Shown: positions 5,720-27,551 of the stretch, piece by piece
How the letters are laid out: each line of letters starts with the position of its first letter
Position numbering within the stretch: position 1 is the first letter of the stretch
Assembly: GCA_964465215.1 (NCBI GenBank)
Contig: CAYXHO010000002.1
Location: forward strand, 1-27,551
DNA length: 27,551 bases
DNA from: an uncultured Candidatus Saccharibacteria bacterium
Lineage (GTDB): Bacteria; Patescibacteriota; Saccharimonadia; Saccharimonadales; AWTP1-31
Direction of reading: 5' to 3'
Translations under genes and position numbers: made by a program
Notes under the pieces: model-generated
Told to the model about the DNA's origin: nothing
What the model saw: the letters and a program-made list of their open reading frames with translations, nothing else
The model's database searches: none

Positions 5720-7066
5720 ATGGCTAAATCATCGGTACGTTATGAATGTAGTAATTGCGGCGCAATCAGCAGCGCCTGGGCAGGGAGATGTCATTCATGC
5801 GGTGAATGGAACACCCTTCAAGAAGAATTACTCATAGACAACGTTAGTGATGCGACCAAATCGGGTAGGGTGCTCTCTCCGACCTCATTGACGAATGTTC
5901 GTAAACAATCTCGCGAACCTCGACTTACCACACATATGCCTGAAGTCGACATAGTACTTGGGGGCGGTCTCGTTGCCGGTAGCGTTACACTTATTGCTGG
6001 ACAACCCGGCATTGGTAAAAGTACGCTTCTGCTGCAACTCGCTGACGCAGTCGCCTCAGATCAGCCTGTATTATACGTAAGTGGAGAAGAATCGGCTCAC
6101 CAAGTTGCCATGCGTGCAGAGCGGCTTGGAGCAAAGCATACTAAACTTGATATAGTTTCGAGTGATAGCACAGACGATATAGCCAGTACAATTGCCAGCG
6201 GAGCATATCGTTTGGTTATAGTTGACTCTATCCAAACGGTGAGCACCAATAAAATTAGCTCTGCTCCAGGCAGCGTGAGTCAAATAACCAATAGCACCCA
6301 TTTGCTTAGTACGGTTGCCAAAGACACTAACACTGCACTCCTCATTGTCGGGCATGTGACCAAAGAGGGGTCGATTGCCGGTCCAAAGATATTAGAACAC
6401 GTTGTTGACGTTGTATTGCAGCTTGAAGGTGATCGCTATGGCGGTTTTAAAGTACTCCGTAGTATTAAGAACCGCTATGGTTCGACCAATGAAGCAGGAA
6501 TATTTGAAATGCTCGAAACCGGACTTCAACCGGTTTCTAACCCATCTGCCGCGTTGCTAGCCGAACGACAAGTAAGTGATGGCTCAGTAGTTTTAGCTAC
6601 TATAGAGGGTAGTCGACCCTTGCTCGTAGAGGTTCAAGCATTGGTGAATCGAACAAGCTACGGGTATCCCAAGCGTGCAGCAAGCGGAATAGACCTCAAC
6701 CGTGTTAACTTACTTATAGCTATGCTGGAGCGGCGAACCAAGCTTAATCTAGCCGAACAAGATATTTATATTAATGTTGTTGGTGGCATAAAAATATCCG
6801 AACCGGCAGCCGACCTAGCTGTCGTTATGGCAATCGCCAGTGCCAGCAAAGGTATGCAACTTAAACGCAACTCCGTCGTATTTGGAGAACTCGGCTTGAG
6901 CGGCGAAGTACGACACGTACCTTTTATCGAAAAACGCCTAGCGGAAGCTAAGAAACTTGGTTTTGACGGTGCCATCGGACCGGTAGTGCGAAGTGGAAAG
7001 AAGCCGACCGGACTCCACAGCGTTTCCGATGTACGCAGTGCCCTTAATACATACTTAGAAGTTTAA
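5720..7066 (+). CDS. radA: DNA repair protein RadA/Sms
   Basis: C4 zinc finger CSNC...CHSC, Walker A GQPGIGKST, KNRYG motif, Lon-like C-terminal domain (PAADLAV, GELGLSGEVR). Confidence 0.97.
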   Translation: MAKSSVRYECSNCGAISSAWAGRCHSCGEWNTLQEELLIDNVSDATKSGRVLSPTSLTNVRKQSREPRLTTHMPEVDIVLGGGLVAGSVTLIAGQPGIGKSTLLLQLADAVASDQPVLYVSGEESAHQVAMRAERLGAKHTKLDIVSSDSTDDIASTIASGAYRLVIVDSIQTVSTNKISSAPGSVSQITNSTHLLSTVAKDTNTALLIVGHVTKEGSIAGPKILEHVVDVVLQLEGDRYGGFKVLRSIKNRYGSTNEAGIFEMLETGLQPVSNPSAALLAERQVSDGSVVLATIEGSRPLLVEVQALVNRTSYGYPKRAASGIDLNRVNLLIAMLERRTKLNLAEQDIYINVVGGIKISEPAADLAVVMAIASASKGMQLKRNSVVFGELGLSGEVRHVPFIEKRLAEAKKLGFDGAIGPVVRSGKKPTGLHSVSDVRSALNTYLEV

Positions 7067-20103: not shown

Positions 20104-20168
20104 GGAAAAGATTATATAACCATTTGCTCCGATTACCATTACCGCTATCTATAGACGCTTGTTTGCTG

Positions 20169-20174
20169 TATACT
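20169..20174 (+). promoter_or_regulatory. -10 hexamer TATACT for tig
   Basis: 9 nt before ATG 20184, no SD; back-to-back with the TATAAT of the divergent minus-strand ORF. Confidence 0.6.
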
Positions 20175-20183
20175 ACTCCAGTT

Positions 20184-21473
20184 ATGCACATCAAACTCAC
20201 CCACAATTCAGACACCAACGTAACTATTAGCGTTGTTGCTGATCTTGAAAATCTGACCAAAATCAAAGAAGCAATCGTCAATCGACTTGGAGCCAGCGTT
20301 AAAATTGCCGGCTTTCGCCCTGGCAAAGCACCTCTTGAAATACTCGAGAAAAACCTTGACCAACAAGTACTCCAAAGTGAGTTTATCGACCAAGTTCTCA
20401 ACTATGGCTATACGCAGGCAGTTGTCAATGAAAAACTACGAACTGTTGGCCAACCAGAAGTTAACTTGAAAAAGTTTGTGCCATTCACCACCTGTGAATT
20501 CGACGTTACTGTTGATGTGCTTGGAGAAGTCGTTCTTCCAGACTACAAAAAAATAAAGAAAACTAAGCCATCGGTAAAAGTTGATACTGCTCAAGTTACT
20601 GAGGTCCTTAAATCTTTGCAGAGCCGTATGGCGTCCAAGACACCTGTAGATCGAGCCGCTAAAGAAGGCGATGAAGTAGTAATCGACTTTAAGGGTGTCG
20701 ACGACAAAGGTAAGCCCGTAAATGGGGCAGATGGTAAAGATTACCCATTAACCCTCGGTAGCAATGCATTCATTCCTGGATTCGAACCAGCTGTTGTTGG
20801 AGTAAAAAAAGGTGAAGCAAAAACCTTTACTATTCCTTTCCCTAAAGACTATGGCGTGGCGGCACTGCAAGGTAAAAAAGTAACTTTCACTATTACTGCT
20901 AAAGAAATAAGCGAACTCACTCCACCCAAACTTGATGACACATTTGCCGAGCAAGCAACCAACGGTCAAATCAAGAACATGACCGACCTCAAAGCAGATA
21001 TTAAACGACAACTAGAACACGAAAAGTCAAATGAAGCCGACCGCGCGTTCGAAACAGAACTGCTGCGAGAAATTGCTGCAAAAGCCAAAGTCGCCATTCC
21101 AGCCAGCGTAATTGATGAGCAAGTACTACGCCTTGAGCAAGATGAAAAGCAAAACCTTATGTACCGAGGCCAGACCTGGGAAGAACACCTGAAGGGCGAG
21201 GGAGTTACTGAAGAAGAACACCGAACTCGAAACCGCAAAGATGCTGAAGAGCAGGTTAAAATTGGTATTGTCATCGGTGCTATTGGCGATCAAGAGAACA
21301 TTGACGTCACTCCCGAAGAACTTGAAGTACGCATTGCGCTTCTAAAGGGTCAATACTCAGACCCAGCCATGCATGCCGAACTCGATAAACCAGAAGGCCG
21401 TCAAGACATCGCCGCGCGCATCCGCAGTGAAAAGATTGTCGCCAAAATCGTCGAATACGCAACAAAGAAATAA
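20184..21473 (+). CDS. tig: Trigger factor
   Basis: Ribosome-binding motif IAGFRPGKAP, FKBP domain (VVIDFKG, LGSNAFIPGFE), C-terminal chaperone domain. Start moved from 20124 to ATG 20184. Confidence 0.96.
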   Translation: MHIKLTHNSDTNVTISVVADLENLTKIKEAIVNRLGASVKIAGFRPGKAPLEILEKNLDQQVLQSEFIDQVLNYGYTQAVVNEKLRTVGQPEVNLKKFVPFTTCEFDVTVDVLGEVVLPDYKKIKKTKPSVKVDTAQVTEVLKSLQSRMASKTPVDRAAKEGDEVVIDFKGVDDKGKPVNGADGKDYPLTLGSNAFIPGFEPAVVGVKKGEAKTFTIPFPKDYGVAALQGKKVTFTITAKEISELTPPKLDDTFAEQATNGQIKNMTDLKADIKRQLEHEKSNEADRAFETELLREIAAKAKVAIPASVIDEQVLRLEQDEKQNLMYRGQTWEEHLKGEGVTEEEHRTRNRKDAEEQVKIGIVIGAIGDQENIDVTPEELEVRIALLKGQYSDPAMHAELDKPEGRQDIAARIRSEKIVAKIVEYATKK

Positions 21474-21476
21474 GAT

Positions 21477-21797
21477 ATGACACCTGAAAGACTCCATTGC
21501 CATAGAGGCTATCGTTTAGAGGGCCCGGAAATCCCACAAGCAGTAAATCTACTGCATCAGTACGGGAGTGTTATTAGTTTGCTCAGATTTGACCGCAGTG
21601 AAGAGGATGCCCAATGGAAATCTGATCTGGATGCTTTACACGGAGCAAACCAGTCAGACGCAGAAAGTGTATGGATTCACCGTCGAACAGGACATTTCTT
21701 GCAAGGTTTATTTGACATGCCAGCCGACGTTGTAGAAGTTGATCATTCGCAAAAACCTGAGCCGCCAATTTTGGAACATACTGGCAAAAAGCCTTAA
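21477..21797 (+). CDS. Hypothetical protein (orphan), probably co-transcribed with tig
   Basis: 106-aa ORF starting 3 nt after the tig stop and filling the tig-clpP gap. Confidence 0.6.
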   Translation: MTPERLHCHRGYRLEGPEIPQAVNLLHQYGSVISLLRFDRSEEDAQWKSDLDALHGANQSDAESVWIHRRTGHFLQGLFDMPADVVEVDHSQKPEPPILEHTGKKP

Positions 21798-21816
21798 CTA
21801 ATCCGCATATCTTTAG

Positions 21817-21843
21817 TTAGCACTCGAACTTGACGAGTGCTAA
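21817..21843 (+). promoter_or_regulatory. CIRCE element (HrcA operator) upstream of clpP
   Basis: Perfect TTAGCACTC-N9-GAGTGCTAA. It overlaps -35 TTGACG (21830-21835); -10 TATACT is at 21852-21857, 8 nt before the ATG. Confidence 0.96.
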
Positions 21844-21865
21844 TTTGTAGCTATACTTTAAAAGT

Positions 21866-22471
21866 ATGAGTAATCTCACTAACTATTCCACACTCGTTCC
21901 AACCGTTATTGAAAGTGACGGTCGTATGGAACGTGCCTATGATATCTACAGCCGATTGTTAAAAGATCGCATCATTTTCCTTGGAGATGGCGTGAATGAA
22001 CACACCGCCAACCTCATTGTTGCCCAACTTTTATTCCTGCACGCCGAAGATGCCAAAAAAGACATCTATTTCTACATCAACAGTCCGGGGGGTAGCGTGT
22101 ACGATGCTTTAGCCATCTACGACACCATGCAATACATCAGCAATGATGTGCAGACTGTCGGTATTGGCATCCAAGCTTCTGCTGCCGCTTTCTTGCTTAG
22201 TTCAGGTACAAAAGGCAAGCGCGTCGTATTACCTAACGCCAGCGTGATGATCCACCAGCCCAGCAGCGGTACCCGAGGTAAGGTAACAGACCAAGAAATT
22301 GATCTGCGTGAGAGCCTTCGTGTAAAAAAACTGCTCGAAGAAATTATGGCCAAAAATACCGGGCAGAAGCTAACCAAAATCCATGAAGACATGGAACGCG
22401 ACAAATGGCTGACTGCTAAAGAAGCTGTTGCCTACGGCATCGCCGATAAAATCATCACCAGCTTAAAATAA
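21866..22471 (+). CDS. clpP: ATP-dependent Clp protease proteolytic subunit
   Basis: [24 protein letters not shown], catalytic Ser in QASAAA, His in [13 protein letters not shown]. Confidence 0.98.
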
Positions 22472-22475
22472 TCAT

Positions 22476-23126
22476 ATGAACATGCTGTACGAACTAGAAT
22501 CCAATCTTAATCAAGATGCTATTGGATCAATTTTTCGAGAACGCGCCGGTATTCTTGCAAGACCTGATAATAAACAACATCTGAGAGAACGGTATTTGAG
22601 TGCAGTCGTAGAGCGGGGCTCTTCAGATGCGCCTGAAAATTTTTCACGATTTTTTAAAGCAGTTCGTACAGGTGACCGAAGTGAACTACGCATGTTTATG
22701 TCTACGACAAACGGCACACTTGATGGATTTGCCACCATCCAGCCAAATCTAGATCTTTCTAGGTGTCGACTTCCATTGCCGCGTGTGATGGGAAAAATTA
22801 TTCCTGCCATATTTGAACAGCTTGATATAATAGCGGATGGTGCATGCAATGTCAGCGGCTATGTGGATGTAACAATGCCGGACGTGCAAAAAAGACTGAC
22901 AGCTATGTTTAAGGCACTTCGGGGACATACACCAGATACTGCAACCTGGACACTTGCTCCCGCACATAATTTTAGCAATTTACACGCCGCCCTTAGTGCT
23001 GCTGGATTTGCACAGAACACAAACTTTCCTCCTGCACGCTATGAAGAGGGTGAAACCCCAGCTCACCGCATAACACCGGTTCAAGCACTTTATGTAGCTA
23101 TGCCACTAGAATCAACCAGATCATAG
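22476..23126 (+). CDS. Hypothetical protein, possibly a degenerate GNAT-like fold
   Basis: 216-aa ORF 4 nt after the clpP stop. MFMSTTNGTLDGFATI and NLHAALSAAGF loosely resemble GNAT elements. The function call is weak. Confidence 0.6.
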   Translation: MNMLYELESNLNQDAIGSIFRERAGILARPDNKQHLRERYLSAVVERGSSDAPENFSRFFKAVRTGDRSELRMFMSTTNGTLDGFATIQPNLDLSRCRLPLPRVMGKIIPAIFEQLDIIADGACNVSGYVDVTMPDVQKRLTAMFKALRGHTPDTATWTLAPAHNFSNLHAALSAAGFAQNTNFPPARYEEGETPAHRITPVQALYVAMPLESTRS

Positions 23127-23155
23127 TTGCACTATACTGTGCTATTTGGTACAGT
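23127..23155 (+). promoter_or_regulatory. Promoter of rpoBC
   Basis: TTGCAC (23127-23132), 17 nt, TACAGT (23150-23155) with TG-n extension. A second TATACT lies at 23133-23138. Confidence 0.55.
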
Positions 23156-23329
23156 AAGTACTAAGAAGTAGAGTAAGTGGGCACTGCCGTGTATCAAAAT
23201 AATACATTAGCATGTTGCACCTCTTAGGTAGTCTTCGCGCGAATAACATCTAAAACAAAAGTCTGCCCGGTTAATCGGGTAAGGTTACAATTTATTACTT
23301 AAGCAATCTAAGCGGGAGAATGCTTGTCT

Positions 23330-26300
23330 ATGGCAAAAGATGTTCAGTCTGCGACCACCAGCAGCAAACGGGTGTTTTATACCAACACCAAAGATCCAAT
23401 CGACCTACCAAATCTGGTCGACCACCAAAATAAATCATGGGACTGGCTCGTAAAAGAAGGACTCGGCGAACTATTAGCCGAAGTAAGTCCAATCGACGAT
23501 TACACCGGTACCAAACTAACCTTGAGCTTCAAAGACTACCGATTTGAAGACCCCAAGATGACCGAGAACGAAGCTCGTGAGAACAACGTCAGCTATGACG
23601 CCCCTCTCAAAGCTACCGTCGTACTCACCAACAAAGTAACCGGTGAAGTAAAAGAACAAGAAATTTACCTCGGCGACTATCCTTGGATGACCAGCCGCGG
23701 TACATTTGTTATTAATGGCGCAGAACGCGTTGTAGTAAGCCAGCTCATTCGATCAGCTGGTGTTTTCTTTACAGCTGATAACAGCGGTAGCGCCAATCGA
23801 TATGGTGCAAAGGTTATTCCAGGCCGAGGTGCATGGCTCGAATTTGAAACCGCAGCCAATGGTGCATTGTATGTAAAGATCGACCGAAAGCGAAAAATCA
23901 CTGTCACAACCTTGCTTCGCGCGCTAGGCATGACAGAGGCTCAGATCAAAGAAACATTTGCAAAGGTCAATAACGGCAGCCTCGACTACGTTAAAGCTAC
24001 CCTGGATAAAGATCCTGCTCGTGGAACCAACGATGCGCTCATTGAAGTATATCGCCGTCTCCGTCCAGGTGACCTGGCAACCGTCGACAACGCCCGCAGC
24101 TTGATCGAAAACATGTTCTACAACTTTAAGCGATTCGACTTCTCCCGAGTTGGACGCTACAAGATTAACAAGCGTCTTAACCTTGACGTGCCAAACACCA
24201 CTGAGAACCGCATTATGCGACTCGAAGATTTGACCGCAATTATTAGCGAGATCATTCGACTTAACAACACGCAAGAACCAGCTGACGACATCGACAGCTT
24301 GGCAAACCGCCGCGTGAAATTGGTAGGTGAACTTGTCCAACGACAATTCCGCATTGGTCTGCTTCGCATGGAGCGTAACACCAAAGACCGCATGAGCATG
24401 AGCGAGATCGAAACTGTAACTCCTGCTCAATTAATTAATGCTCGTCCAATCGTGGCTGCTGTTCGTGAATTCTTTGCAAGCTCACAGCTCAGTCAGTTCA
24501 TGGATCAGATAAACCCACTAGCCGAATTGGCTGTCAAGCGACGCCTGAGCTCTATGGGTCCTGGTGGTCTGTCTCGAGAACGTGCAGGCTTTGAAGTCCG
24601 CGACGCGCACGCTACCCACTATGGTCGTATCTGTGCCGTGGAAACTCCAGAAGGTGCCAACATTGGTTTGGTACTGAACCTTGCTAACTATGCCCGTATT
24701 AACGACTACGGTTTCATTGAAACTCCATATGTCAAAGTGGTAAAGGGTAAAGTTACTGGCGAAGTTGAATATCTTGATGCAGCTGCCGAAGAACATGCCG
24801 TTATCGCCAGCGCCGGTGAAGAAATCACTGCCAAAGGTACGTTTGCCCGCGAACGCGTTAGTGCCCGTCGATACCTAATCGCCGGAGAAGTTGACGCCGA
24901 CGAAGTCACCCATATGGATGCATCTCGTCGCCAAATTATCGGTTCGAGTGCTGGGCTCATTCCATTTATTGAGAAGAACTATGTGTACCGCTCCCTCATG
25001 GGAAGCAATCAGCAACGTCAAGCTGTGCCGCTTATTAAGCCACAAGCTCCAATTGTTGGTACCGGTATGGAAGGTACTGTTGCTCGCAACTCTGGCCAGG
25101 TGGTCATGGCAGAAGCCAATGGCGTCGTTACTAAAGCCACCGGTGATGGCGTAACAGTTAAATACGCCAGTGTCAGCAAAACGTACGAACCATTGCACTT
25201 TATTCGATCTAACGATGGCACCAGCATTAACCAAAAAGTTGTTGTCGAAACCGGTGACAAAGTAAAAGCTGGCGACATCCTTATCGAAGGTATGAGCATC
25301 GAAGATGGTGAATTAGCACTCGGTAAGAACCTCACCGTTGCCTTTATGCCATGGAATGGTTATAACTTTGAAGATGCCATTATCCTCAGTCGTCGTTTAG
25401 TTGAAGACGACACGCTTACCAGCGTTCATATCGTTGACTACATGACTGAAGTTCGTGAAACCAAGCTTGGCCCTGAGGTTGTAACCCAGGATATTCCAAA
25501 CGTTTCCGAAGAAGCCCTGCGTCACCTCGATGAAGATGGTATTGTCCGAATCGGTGCCGAAGTACACCCTGGTGATATCTTGGTTGGTAAGATTACACCA
25601 AAGGGTGAACAAGAACTTAGTTCCGAAGAACGCTTGCTCCGTGCTATCTTTGGTGAAAAAGCCAAAGAAGTGCGCGACACCTCACAACGCATGAGTAACG
25701 GTAAGCACGGTAAAGTTGTTGGTGTTAAAGTTTTCTCTCGAGAAAACGGCCACGAACTTAAAGCCGGCGTGATCATGCAGATCCAAATTTTCGTTGCCCA
25801 AATGCGCAAGATTAGCGTTGGAGACAAGCTTGGTGGTCGTCACGGTAACAAGGGTGTTATTGCCCGCATTCTACCTGTTGAAGACATGCCATTCATGGCT
25901 GACGGTACTCCGGTAGATGTCGTCTTGAACCCACTTGGTGTACCAAGTCGTATGAACGTTGGTCAGTTGTTCGAAACGCACCTTGGAATGGCTGCCAAAG
26001 CCCTTGGTATTAAAGTTGCTACTCCATCTTTTGAAGGTGTAGAAACTTCTAAGATCCGCGAACTACTCACTCAAGCTGGTCTGCCAGATGATGGTAAGCA
26101 ACAGCTTTTTGATGGACGCACTGGTGAACCATTTAGCGAACACACAACTGTCGGTAACATGTACATGATTAAGCTCAACCATATGATTGCCGACAAGATC
26201 CATGCTCGATCTACCGGACCATACACTATGGTTACCCAGCAGCCACTGGGTGGTAAGGCTCAAAACGGTGGTCAGCGCTTTGGAGAAATGGAAGTCTGGG

Positions 26301-26743
26301 CCCTCGAAGCCTATGGCGCATCCAACACGTTGCAAGAAATGCTTACCATCAAGTCTGACGACGTCTATGGACGAAGTAAGGCTTATGAGTCGATCATTAA
26401 AGATACTGAAATTGTTGGACCAAAAGTCCCAGAAAGCTTCAACGTGCTGGTTAAAGAGCTGCAAGGTCTTGGCCTTAAGGTTGACCTCATCGGTTCTGGT
26501 AAAGCTATCGACGCCGAAGAAGTCCTCGCCGAAACAATCAAAGATGAAGCAGGCCATATGCCTACTGTAGACGTACCAGAGCCAACTGTTTCTGAAATTG
26601 ATGTTACTGCCGATGCCGTAGCTGATGAATTTAGTATTATGGACGACCTGGACGATAGCGTTCATGTAGTAACCGATGACAATAGTGATGACGACGCCGT
26701 AGCAGTTTCTGCTGACGACGAAAATGAAAAGGAGGCAAACTAA
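23330..26743 (+). CDS. rpoB: RNA polymerase beta subunit
   Basis: GTFVINGAERVVVSQL, ETPEGANIGL, LMGSNQQRQAVP, GDKLGGRHGNKG, GGQRFGEMEVWALEAYG; acidic tail. Start is ATG 23330 or TTG 23324. Confidence 0.99.
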   Translation: MAKDVQSATTSSKRVFYTNTKDPIDLPNLVDHQNKSWDWLVKEGLGELLAEVSPIDDYTGTKLTLSFKDYRFEDPKMTENEARENNVSYDAPLKATVVLTNKVTGEVKEQEIYLGDYPWMTSRGTFVINGAERVVVSQLIRSAGVFFTADNSGSANRYGAKVIPGRGAWLEFETAANGALYVKIDRKRKITVTTLLRALGMTEAQIKETFAKVNNGSLDYVKATLDKDPARGTNDALIEVYRRLRPGDLATVDNARSLIENMFYNFKRFDFSRVGRYKINKRLNLDVPNTTENRIMRLEDLTAIISEIIRLNNTQEPADDIDSLANRRVKLVGELVQRQFRIGLLRMERNTKDRMSMSEIETVTPAQLINARPIVAAVREFFASSQLSQFMDQINPLAELAVKRRLSSMGPGGLSRERAGFEVRDAHATHYGRICAVETPEGANIGLVLNLANYARINDYGFIETPYVKVVKGKVTGEVEYLDAAAEEHAVIASAGEEITAKGTFARERVSARRYLIAGEVDADEVTHMDASRRQIIGSSAGLIPFIEKNYVYRSLMGSNQQRQAVPLIKPQAPIVGTGMEGTVARNSGQVVMAEANGVVTKATGDGVTVKYASVSKTYEPLHFIRSNDGTSINQKVVVETGDKVKAGDILIEGMSIEDGELALGKNLTVAFMPWNGYNFEDAIILSRRLVEDDTLTSVHIVDYMTEVRETKLGPEVVTQDIPNVSEEALRHLDEDGIVRIGAEVHPGDILVGKITPKGEQELSSEERLLRAIFGEKAKEVRDTSQRMSNGKHGKVVGVKVFSRENGHELKAGVIMQIQIFVAQMRKISVGDKLGGRHGNKGVIARILPVEDMPFMADGTPVDVVLNPLGVPSRMNVGQLFETHLGMAAKALGIKVATPSFEGVETSKIRELLTQAGLPDDGKQQLFDGRTGEPFSEHTTVGNMYMIKLNHMIADKIHARSTGPYTMVTQQPLGGKAQNGGQRFGEMEVWALEAYGASNTLQEMLTIKSDDVYGRSKAYESIIKDTEIVGPKVPESFNVLVKELQGLGLKVDLIGSGKAIDAEEVLAETIKDEAGHMPTVDVPEPTVSEIDVTADAVADEFSIMDDLDDSVHVVTDDNSDDDAVAVSADDENEKEAN

Positions 26744-27551
26744 TGCGACGTTATTCTTCAGGAACCAATATTGCAGACTTTGATGCCGTTCGATTGGCAG
26801 TAGCCAGCCCAGCCGATATTCTCGACTGGTCATATGGCGAAGTTACCAAACCAGAAACTATCAACTACCGAACTCAAAAGCCAGAGCGCGACGGTTTGTT
26901 CTGTGAACGAATCTTTGGACCGGTTAAAGACATTAGCCCGCATGACGCTAAGTTCAAGGGCGTTCGATCTCGAGAAGCAGCTGTTGATAAAAACGGTGAA
27001 GTGGTAACCAAGAGCATTGTTCGTCGTGAACGCATGGCTCATATTAGCTTAGCTAGCCCGGTCGCCCACATCTGGTTCCTTCGTGGAACTCCAAGTGCTA
27101 TGGGCCTTGTACTCGGCTTAACCGTCAAAGCACTCGAGCGAGTAGCGTACTTTGCCAGCTATATCATCAAGAAGGTCGACACTGAAAAGCGTGACCAAAT
27201 GCTTGCTGATCGTGAAGCAGAATTCAATGCCGCAAAAGAAGCTATTCGACTCCGCTACGAAAACGAAGCTAAGGCAGAAGATGCCAACGTCAAAGCTCTA
27301 GCCGAAATGCAAACCAAAGAGCTCGAAGAACTCACCATTGCTTTCGAACAAAACAAAGCACAACTTGAAACGCTTGTACCACTCGGTCTCATCAGCGAGA
27401 CTGATTACCGAGCACTCCCTCGTGAACTTCGAGATCTGATTAGTGTTGGAATGGGTGGAACCGCTCTTAAAGATCTTCTTGATACTGTTGACCTCGGTGA
27501 ACTCATCGAAAATCTATCCAAGGAAGCTGAAGATGCTAAGGGTATGCGCAA
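26743..27551 (+). CDS. rpoC: RNA polymerase beta' subunit, 5' part; runs off the window end
   Basis: ATG overlaps the rpoB stop (TAATG), with SD AAGGAGG. MRRYSSG...WSYGEVTKPETINYRTQKPERDGLFCERIFGP...VRRERMAHI...PVAHIWF. Open to the end of the window. Confidence 0.98.
   Translation, partial: MRRYSSGTNIADFDAVRLAVASPADILDWSYGEVTKPETINYRTQKPERDGLFCERIFGPVKDISPHDAKFKGVRSREAAVDKNGEVVTKSIVRRERMAHISLASPVAHIWFLRGTPSAMGLVLGLTVKALERVAYFASYIIKKVDTEKRDQMLADREAEFNAAKEAIRLRYENEAKAEDANVKALAEMQTKELEELTIAFEQNKAQLETLVPLGLISETDYRALPRELRDLISVGMGGTALKDLLDTVDLGELIENLSKEAEDAKGMR

Follow-up and report, generated by a model that had tools for sequence, protein, structure and literature searches.

The stretch of DNA analysed here, which we call the window, is an entire contig of 27,551 nucleotides (CAYXHO010000002.1, assembly GCA_964465215.1) from the genome of an uncultured Candidatus Saccharibacteria bacterium; the genome comprises 778 kb in 96 contigs and is 94% complete. 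The window ends inside rpoC, the gene for the beta' subunit of RNA polymerase, and near the start of this gene lies the counterpart of the N-terminal zinc-binding domain (ZBD), which forms the first (ZnI) of two Zn(Cys)4 sites in the canonical subunit. An earlier note, made from the sequence of the window alone, had proposed that this domain has lost all four of its cysteines, in what it took to be a patescibacterium, and our analysis supports that placement of the organism. Counting both the first and the second (ZnII) site, none of the eight ligand cysteines of beta' is present in this genome.

A single-copy rpoC gene encodes a Cys-less zinc-binding domain

The window holds the 5' part of rpoC, directly downstream of rpoB, and the remaining 846 codons lie on the minus strand of a second contig of the same genome (C50), with the stop codon ending at C50:3001. 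This second part matches beta' chains in the PDB at E 5e-62 and carries the catalytic motif NADFDGDQ, invariant in our RpoC alignment, at residue 87 of the fragment. Against the family model TIGR02386 the split protein aligns in three pieces of 205, 638, and 225 bits, which cover model positions 2-191 and 354-1144; because the gene is divided between two contigs, no single piece reaches the model cut-off. The rpoC N-terminus has a single match in the whole genome, which rules out a second, canonical copy. By family and PDB similarity, catalytic motif, and its single copy next to rpoB, this is the usual gene for RNA polymerase beta' in a member of Saccharimonadales (Saccharibacteria, TM7), and the RpoC tree described below indicates that it was inherited vertically. 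The two parts together recover 1115 residues of beta', three of which are cysteines.

One other genome of the same family (G022) has two rpoC N-termini, at C22:7774-8208 and C1:8409-8822, that are 96% and 83% identical to the query. This most likely reflects a mixed bin (4% contamination), not a duplication.

Residues 59-89 of the encoded protein, GPVKDISPHDAKFKGVRSREAAVDKNGEVVT, were aligned by HMMER without gaps to a 31-residue segment of the PDB chain 8i23_D. The gapless alignment to beta' chains, with the PDB match of the whole fragment (E 2e-51), bears out the identification of this segment as the N-terminal zinc ribbon of RpoC, and the positions first given for it, 26929-27009, run from D63 to T89. 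With beta' chains of Escherichia coli (E. coli), query 7-193 pairs with chain 11-195 and the offset stays at +4, and it is this constant offset that assigns P66, D68, V81, and N84 to the ligands C70, C72, C85, and C88. Thus, none of the four cysteines of the canonical CxC...CxxC pattern is found, while the segment between the flanks GP.KD and VT.S.VRRERM has the same length as in canonical ribbons and is free of indels throughout the order. When 68 full-length RpoC sequences were aligned with MAFFT, all four ZnI columns held Cys in 56/56 rows from outside Saccharimonadales, and none of the four held Cys in any of the 12 Saccharimonadales rows. The replacement of all four cysteines by P, D, V, and N between conserved flanks, as described in the earlier note, is therefore seen both in the HMMER alignment and in the MAFFT alignment of 68 sequences.

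Table 1. Positions of the features discussed, numbered from the first nucleotide of the window.
Feature	Position	Strand	Description
rpoC, 5' part	26743..27551	+	269 codons (269 aa), open at the contig end; matches PDB beta' chains at E 2e-51 (phmmer)
Cys-less counterpart of the beta' zinc-binding domain (ZnI), residues G59-T89	26917..27009	+	Gapless HMMER alignment; length of the canonical ribbon
Codon P66	26938..26940	+	Position of E. coli C70
Codon D68	26944..26946	+	Position of E. coli C72; invariant within the order
Codon V81	26983..26985	+	Position of E. coli C85
Codon N84	26992..26994	+	Position of E. coli C88; relatives have K, R, or E
rpoB	23324..26743	+	1139 codons; TAA stop shares one base with the rpoC ATG (TAATG); acidic C-terminal tail
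RadA-like protein	5720-7063		Pfam Zn_ribbon_LapB; N-terminal CxxC...CxxC zinc ribbon, on the same contig as rpoC

The second zinc site has also lost its ligands

The loss of ligands extends to ZnII, which was absent from the earlier note and makes the case larger than was stated there. In the MAFFT alignment of the 68 full-length proteins with the C50 fragment of this genome, the positions of E. coli C814, C888, C895, and C898 are occupied by D, S, G, and S. An independent HMMER pairwise alignment of a 291-aa query to solved chains gave the same four residues, pairing ETDDD with ETDCG and ALSSTSVRGVGQKSYG with VLTCHSEYGVCAKCYG. When the 111-aa ZnII region alone was used as a phmmer query, no match was found in the PDB. 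The ZnII columns are Cys in 55-56 of the 56 outsiders. Among the 12 rows from the order, the second position is Cys in eight, the first is kept by a single row (L037), and the fourth is Ser in all 12. In a comparison of full-length rpoC genes, those of the order encode no ZnI cysteines and 0-1 of the four ZnII cysteines, at most the second (three genomes, G084, G074, and G010, hold none or one), and those from seven sister-order families encode all eight.

These changes are not part of a general purge of cysteine, which is ruled out by the retention of non-ligand cysteines in RpoC and of many other Cys4 motifs. According to the MAFFT alignment, the conserved non-ligand cysteines of RpoC were retained in the order and two new conserved ones were gained. 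Outside the order, a metagenome-assembled genome of Dehalococcoidia (L093, CBDDPU010000004.1) has kept four ZnI cysteines and has L, C, S, and A at the ZnII positions, which may represent an independent, partial loss of ZnII outside Patescibacteria.

Could metal still be bound at ZnI through new ligands, namely His67, Asp68, Asp82, and Asn84? In favor of such a site, D68 and D82 never vary within the order and most members have H67. However, H67 is Asn in two deep families (genomes G074 and G084), many members have K, R, or E in place of N84, and neither P66 nor V81 can bind metal, so that only two invariant carboxylates are left, and two carboxylates alone do not make a structural zinc site. 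ZnII, for its part, reads D, S, G, and S in this genome. We consider it extremely improbable that zinc is bound in an equivalent manner through His and Asp, which was one of the outcomes that the earlier note had named as refuting its interpretation.

The Cys-less state is fixed across Saccharimonadales

We next describe the distribution of the Cys-less domain, treating genomes as samples of their groups. The Cys-less motif DI[SN]PHDAK[FY]KGVRSREAAVDK[NKR]GE[VIL]VT occurs in each of the 46 loci that represent the family, the order, and the nearest matches, and all 65 more distant loci, from other Patescibacteria, Chloroflexota, Proteobacteria, and others, carry CxC...CxxC. Direct reading of sequences identified the Cys-less motif in about 47 Saccharimonadales genomes, including two deep families of the order that are Cys-less with the variant motifs DINSNDSKYKGLRSREAAVDKNGELVT and DINPNDPKYRGIRNREVARDHKGEIVT, and showed that seven sister-order families of the same class keep their ZnI cysteines.

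The same division was found on a larger scale by searching 301 genomes of the class, 173 of them from the order (24 families), with the Cys-less 73-aa segment as query. All 173 genomes of the order fell in the Cys-less class, at E values of 1e-38 to 1e-46, with one exception in score (G053), where rpoC is split at a contig end and direct reading finds the domain to be Cys-less. The sister-order genomes with a match (about 110) all scored far more weakly against this query, nearly all at 1e-24 to 1e-30. In a converse screen of 401 Patescibacteria genomes with a canonical query, only Saccharimonadales scored low (1e-29 to 1e-32, the split gene of G053 apart), and about 375 other Patescibacteria fell in the canonical score class. 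We read the ten weakest of these outsiders directly, and all visible cysteines were kept except in G619. In this patescibacterium of another class the gene is a contig-end fragment (L262, G619:C9:25136-25267), in which the third ZnI Cys is Ser and the first two positions are cut off.

A phylogeny of 78 RpoC sequences places the Cys-less rows in one clade (SH-aLRT, a likelihood-ratio branch support, of 100) that has a stem branch of 0.22, is nested within the class, and is sister to two families, f35 and f36. Because the Cys-less rows form a single clade nested in the class, one change suffices, which argues for a single origin on the stem of the order in a vertically inherited gene. The nesting of the clade within its own class likewise rules out horizontal replacement of rpoC. 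An assembly error or a feature of a single strain is ruled out by the fixation of the motif across the order; the substitutions are not unique to this assembly, the other outcome that had been named as a refutation.

Ribosomal zinc ribbons are Cys-less in the same lineage

The S14, L33, L36, L31, L28, L32, and S4 proteins of this genome are all Cys-poor. We compared ribosomal proteins between eight genomes of the order and 21 sister-order genomes. L36 is Cys-less in 8/8 order genomes and has CxxC...C..H in 21/21 sister-order genomes; L31 is of a long, Cys-less type in 8/8 and of the Cys4 type in 20/21; S14 is Cys-less in 8/8 and of the Cys4 type in 11/21; and L33 is Cys-less in 7/8 and mixed among the sister orders. 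The nearest sister families (G041 and G042) have zinc forms of L36, L31, and S14 together with all eight beta' cysteines. Thus, at least five separate zinc sites are Cys-less in the whole order but have the zinc state in these nearest sisters.

Two further observations concern these proteins. The single sister-order genome with a Cys-less, long L31 (G061, family f43) has zinc forms of L36 and S14. In L36 (G000:C7:8160-8273), the order has KKISPDDKIV where the sisters have KKMCxKCKIV, and in the RpoC ZBD (window 26932-26946) it has KDISPHDAK where the sisters have KDWxCYCGK. The occurrence of I-S-P-x-D in both knuckles may point to a shared structural way of replacing a zinc knuckle.

The pattern bears on a non-adaptive explanation, in which chance removed the ligands while the population was small and its genome reduced, and compensation then restored stability. 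The tiny genomes (778 kb here), the many accompanying substitutions in the ZBD, which are possibly compensatory, and the long stem branch in the RpoC tree (0.22) would all be consistent with drift. However, some 375 other, equally reduced Patescibacteria genomes keep ZnI, and no reversal is seen in the roughly 200 genomes sampled. Moreover, the Cys-less state of both beta' sites, of L36 and L31, and, with respect to the nearest sister families, of S14 is confined to the order or fixed within it, which would be hard to achieve by chance. We regard drift with compensation as highly improbable.

The Cys-less domain was rebuilt and is under strong purifying selection

The ZBD differs from the nearest zinc-binding sister sequence at 18 of 30 positions, with a gain of three acidic residues. 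The basic residues K70, K72, R75, and R77 are kept, and the net charge, counting side chains only, goes from +5 to +2. Across 45 distinct nucleotide sequences of the order, the ratio of nonsynonymous to synonymous differences (pN/pS) in the ZBD is 0.075 (pN 0.06, pS about 0.8, with synonymous sites saturated), and its two flanks have ratios of 0.045 and 0.134 in the same sequences. The Cys-less ZBD is therefore under strong purifying selection: it was rebuilt and then frozen, and it is not decaying.

Both beta' zinc sites are generally counted among the conserved features of the bacterial enzyme. Work on E. coli links the first of them to termination and antitermination, and the second to assembly of the enzyme. 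The changes in the ZBD could reflect a retuning of the exit-channel module, affecting the handling of nascent RNA, termination at hairpins, NusA, or antitermination by phage or host factors, with the loss of zinc as a by-product. That 18 of the 30 positions changed together and then froze, and that the charge of the domain fell by three, would fit this explanation. So would the role of the domain in model bacteria, where it lines the RNA exit channel, carries the S1 domain of NusA, and anchors put RNA (PMC8632103).

Rho, one known partner of the ZBD, was not found above cut-off in any of 61 genomes of the class, in the order and the sister orders alike. Its absence from the class could be taken to favor retuning, but Rho is equally not found in sister orders that keep all four ZnI cysteines, and a tie between the ZBD changes and Rho loss is ruled out on this ground. 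Nor has an order-specific partner protein been identified. Retuning also leaves unexplained both the loss of ZnII, which lies far from the exit channel, and that of the ribosomal zinc ribbons. The same losses would be left unexplained by altered promoter recognition or termination, two meanings that the earlier note had offered. We consider it unlikely, although it is the strongest of the alternatives, and we favor zinc economy in abundant machinery over retuned termination.

Gene context of rpoC

The order of genes in window 20124-26743 is tig, an ORF of 106 aa, clpP, an ORF of 216 aa without a Pfam match, and rpoB, followed by rpoC; no rplKAJL block is found upstream of rpoB in the window. 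The C-terminus of RpoB is an acidic tail, rich in Asp and about 40 residues long (window 26600-26740). At 26741-26745 the stop codon of rpoB overlaps the start codon of rpoC as TAATG, with AAGGAGG before the overlap, an arrangement that suggests translational coupling of the two genes.

Discussion

The explanation that we favor, and to which we assign a probability of roughly 0.7, is that both beta' Zn(Cys)4 sites were dismantled on the stem of the order, leaving a metal-independent ribbon, with zinc economy as the likely driver. By this account, both structural sites of beta' were lost on the stem of Saccharimonadales, and the N-terminal ribbon was not deleted but rebuilt at equal length, and then frozen by purifying selection. 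The ZBD most likely still forms the wall of the RNA exit channel, held by ordinary side-chain contacts and no metal. The driver would most likely be a lowered need for zinc in RNA polymerase and the ribosome, which are the most abundant machines. The substitutions with their taxonomic extent, single origin, and selection, the loss of ZnII, the forms of the ribosomal proteins, and the zinc ribbons kept in low-abundance proteins are shown by the data above, and the absence of bound metal, the retention of fold and role, and zinc economy as the selective cause are what we infer from them; zinc economy is favored because the losses are coordinated in the polymerase and the ribosome and not in rare proteins. 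Zinc sparing, one of the meanings that the earlier note had offered, thus gains real support, as ZnII and the zinc-ribbon ribosomal proteins are Cys-less in the same lineage.

The same pattern of Cys4 sites lost in polymerase and ribosome would be predicted if zinc-thiolate clusters had been replaced in abundant essential machines because oxidants, in niches that are oxic or associated with a host, can damage thiolates. Zinc-thiolate sites are in general redox-sensitive. However, Fe/Mn superoxide dismutase is present in 6/18 order genomes and 25/43 sister genomes, and haem-copper oxidase subunit I in 5/18 and 9/43, so neither marker is enriched in the order, and the redox-sensitive zinc centre of DnaJ has been kept. 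We find oxidation-proofing very unlikely.

Several observations weigh against zinc economy or against the retention of the fold. Judged by Pfam, zinc domains are kept in LigA, DnaJ, PriA, NrdR, Fpg, and RadA (the RadA-like protein is encoded in the window; Table 1), and a motif scan also found the C-terminal Cys-rich motif and CxxC of UvrA and CxxC pairs in LeuRS and ribonucleotide reductase. The retained Cys4 ribbons mean that the cell still needs zinc, and the economy argument leans on assumed protein abundance. Few genomes anywhere in the class encode an importer of the ZnuA type, and the transporter repertoire is therefore no separate evidence that the order in particular is short of zinc. 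In the ribosome, C- (cysteine-free) forms of S14, L33, L32, and S4 also occur in sister orders with intact beta' sites, and part of the ribosomal pattern is thus not order-specific. Finally, AlphaFold2 gave a confidence score (pLDDT) of about 50 in the ZBD segment, both for the 269-aa fragment itself and for a 645-aa construct from a relative in the same family, in runs without a canonical-sequence control, and modelling thus gives no support for retention of the fold in the Cys-less ZBD.

We think it reasonably probable, with somewhat less confidence than in the explanation favored above, that the core gene-expression apparatus of these bacteria, RNA polymerase and ribosome, is without any structural zinc and arose once, by in-place conversion of the two sites. 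That a whole widespread order lacks both sites would imply that the beta' zinc sites are replaceable, and it points to compensating residues. If so, bacterial RNA polymerase could in principle do without sites that have long been considered essential to its assembly and function, and Saccharimonadales, an order that we take to include the human oral TM7 bacteria and to be partly cultivable, would offer a natural template for a metal-free bacterial polymerase. Taken with an all-C- ribosome, the finding suggests that, where genomes are ultra-small, economy of metal can remodel even those bacterial machines that are most conserved. Phage factors, host factors, and inhibitors that bind the ZBD may act differently in these organisms.

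Comparison with known systems

Compared with a canonical beta' with two Zn(Cys)4 sites, the protein described here is the same gene product, with the same domain order, the same catalytic motif, and a ZBD of the same length and position. The flanks PETINYRT, ERDGLFCERIFGP, VRRERM, and HIWF are conserved and the basic patch is partly kept. It differs in lacking all eight ligand cysteines in this genome and in the change of 18 of the 30 ZBD positions relative to its nearest zinc-binding sister. The public records matched in a homologue search, all of them metagenomic, name the Cys-less proteins simply beta', and full-text literature searches found no paper describing a Cys-less beta' or an all-C- ribosome in Saccharibacteria.

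The closest parallel is provided by the ribosomal proteins L31, L33, L36, and S14, in which a version free of cysteine takes the place of the Cys4 ribbon and the protein keeps its role, as the ZBD may here. Such C+ (zinc-binding) and C- forms of zinc-ribbon ribosomal proteins were reportedly described by Makarova et al. in 2001. RpoC of this genome likewise has a cysteine-free homologous segment under selection, in the company of C- ribosomal proteins, and a polymerase in which both structural metal sites have been replaced would be analogous to them. The known systems, however, rely on a regulated second paralogue, whereas here the sole copy of an essential subunit would have been converted permanently, in place, and at two sites. 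This genome has only the C- forms of L31, L33, L36, and S14, with one copy per gene, so a regulated swap is not expected. Other bacteria make such a swap when zinc is limiting, exchanging L31 and L36 for their paralogues as part of zinc sparing controlled by Zur (recent examples in PMC9825181 and PMC5912738). The state of Saccharimonadales would be a permanent version of that Zur-switched response.
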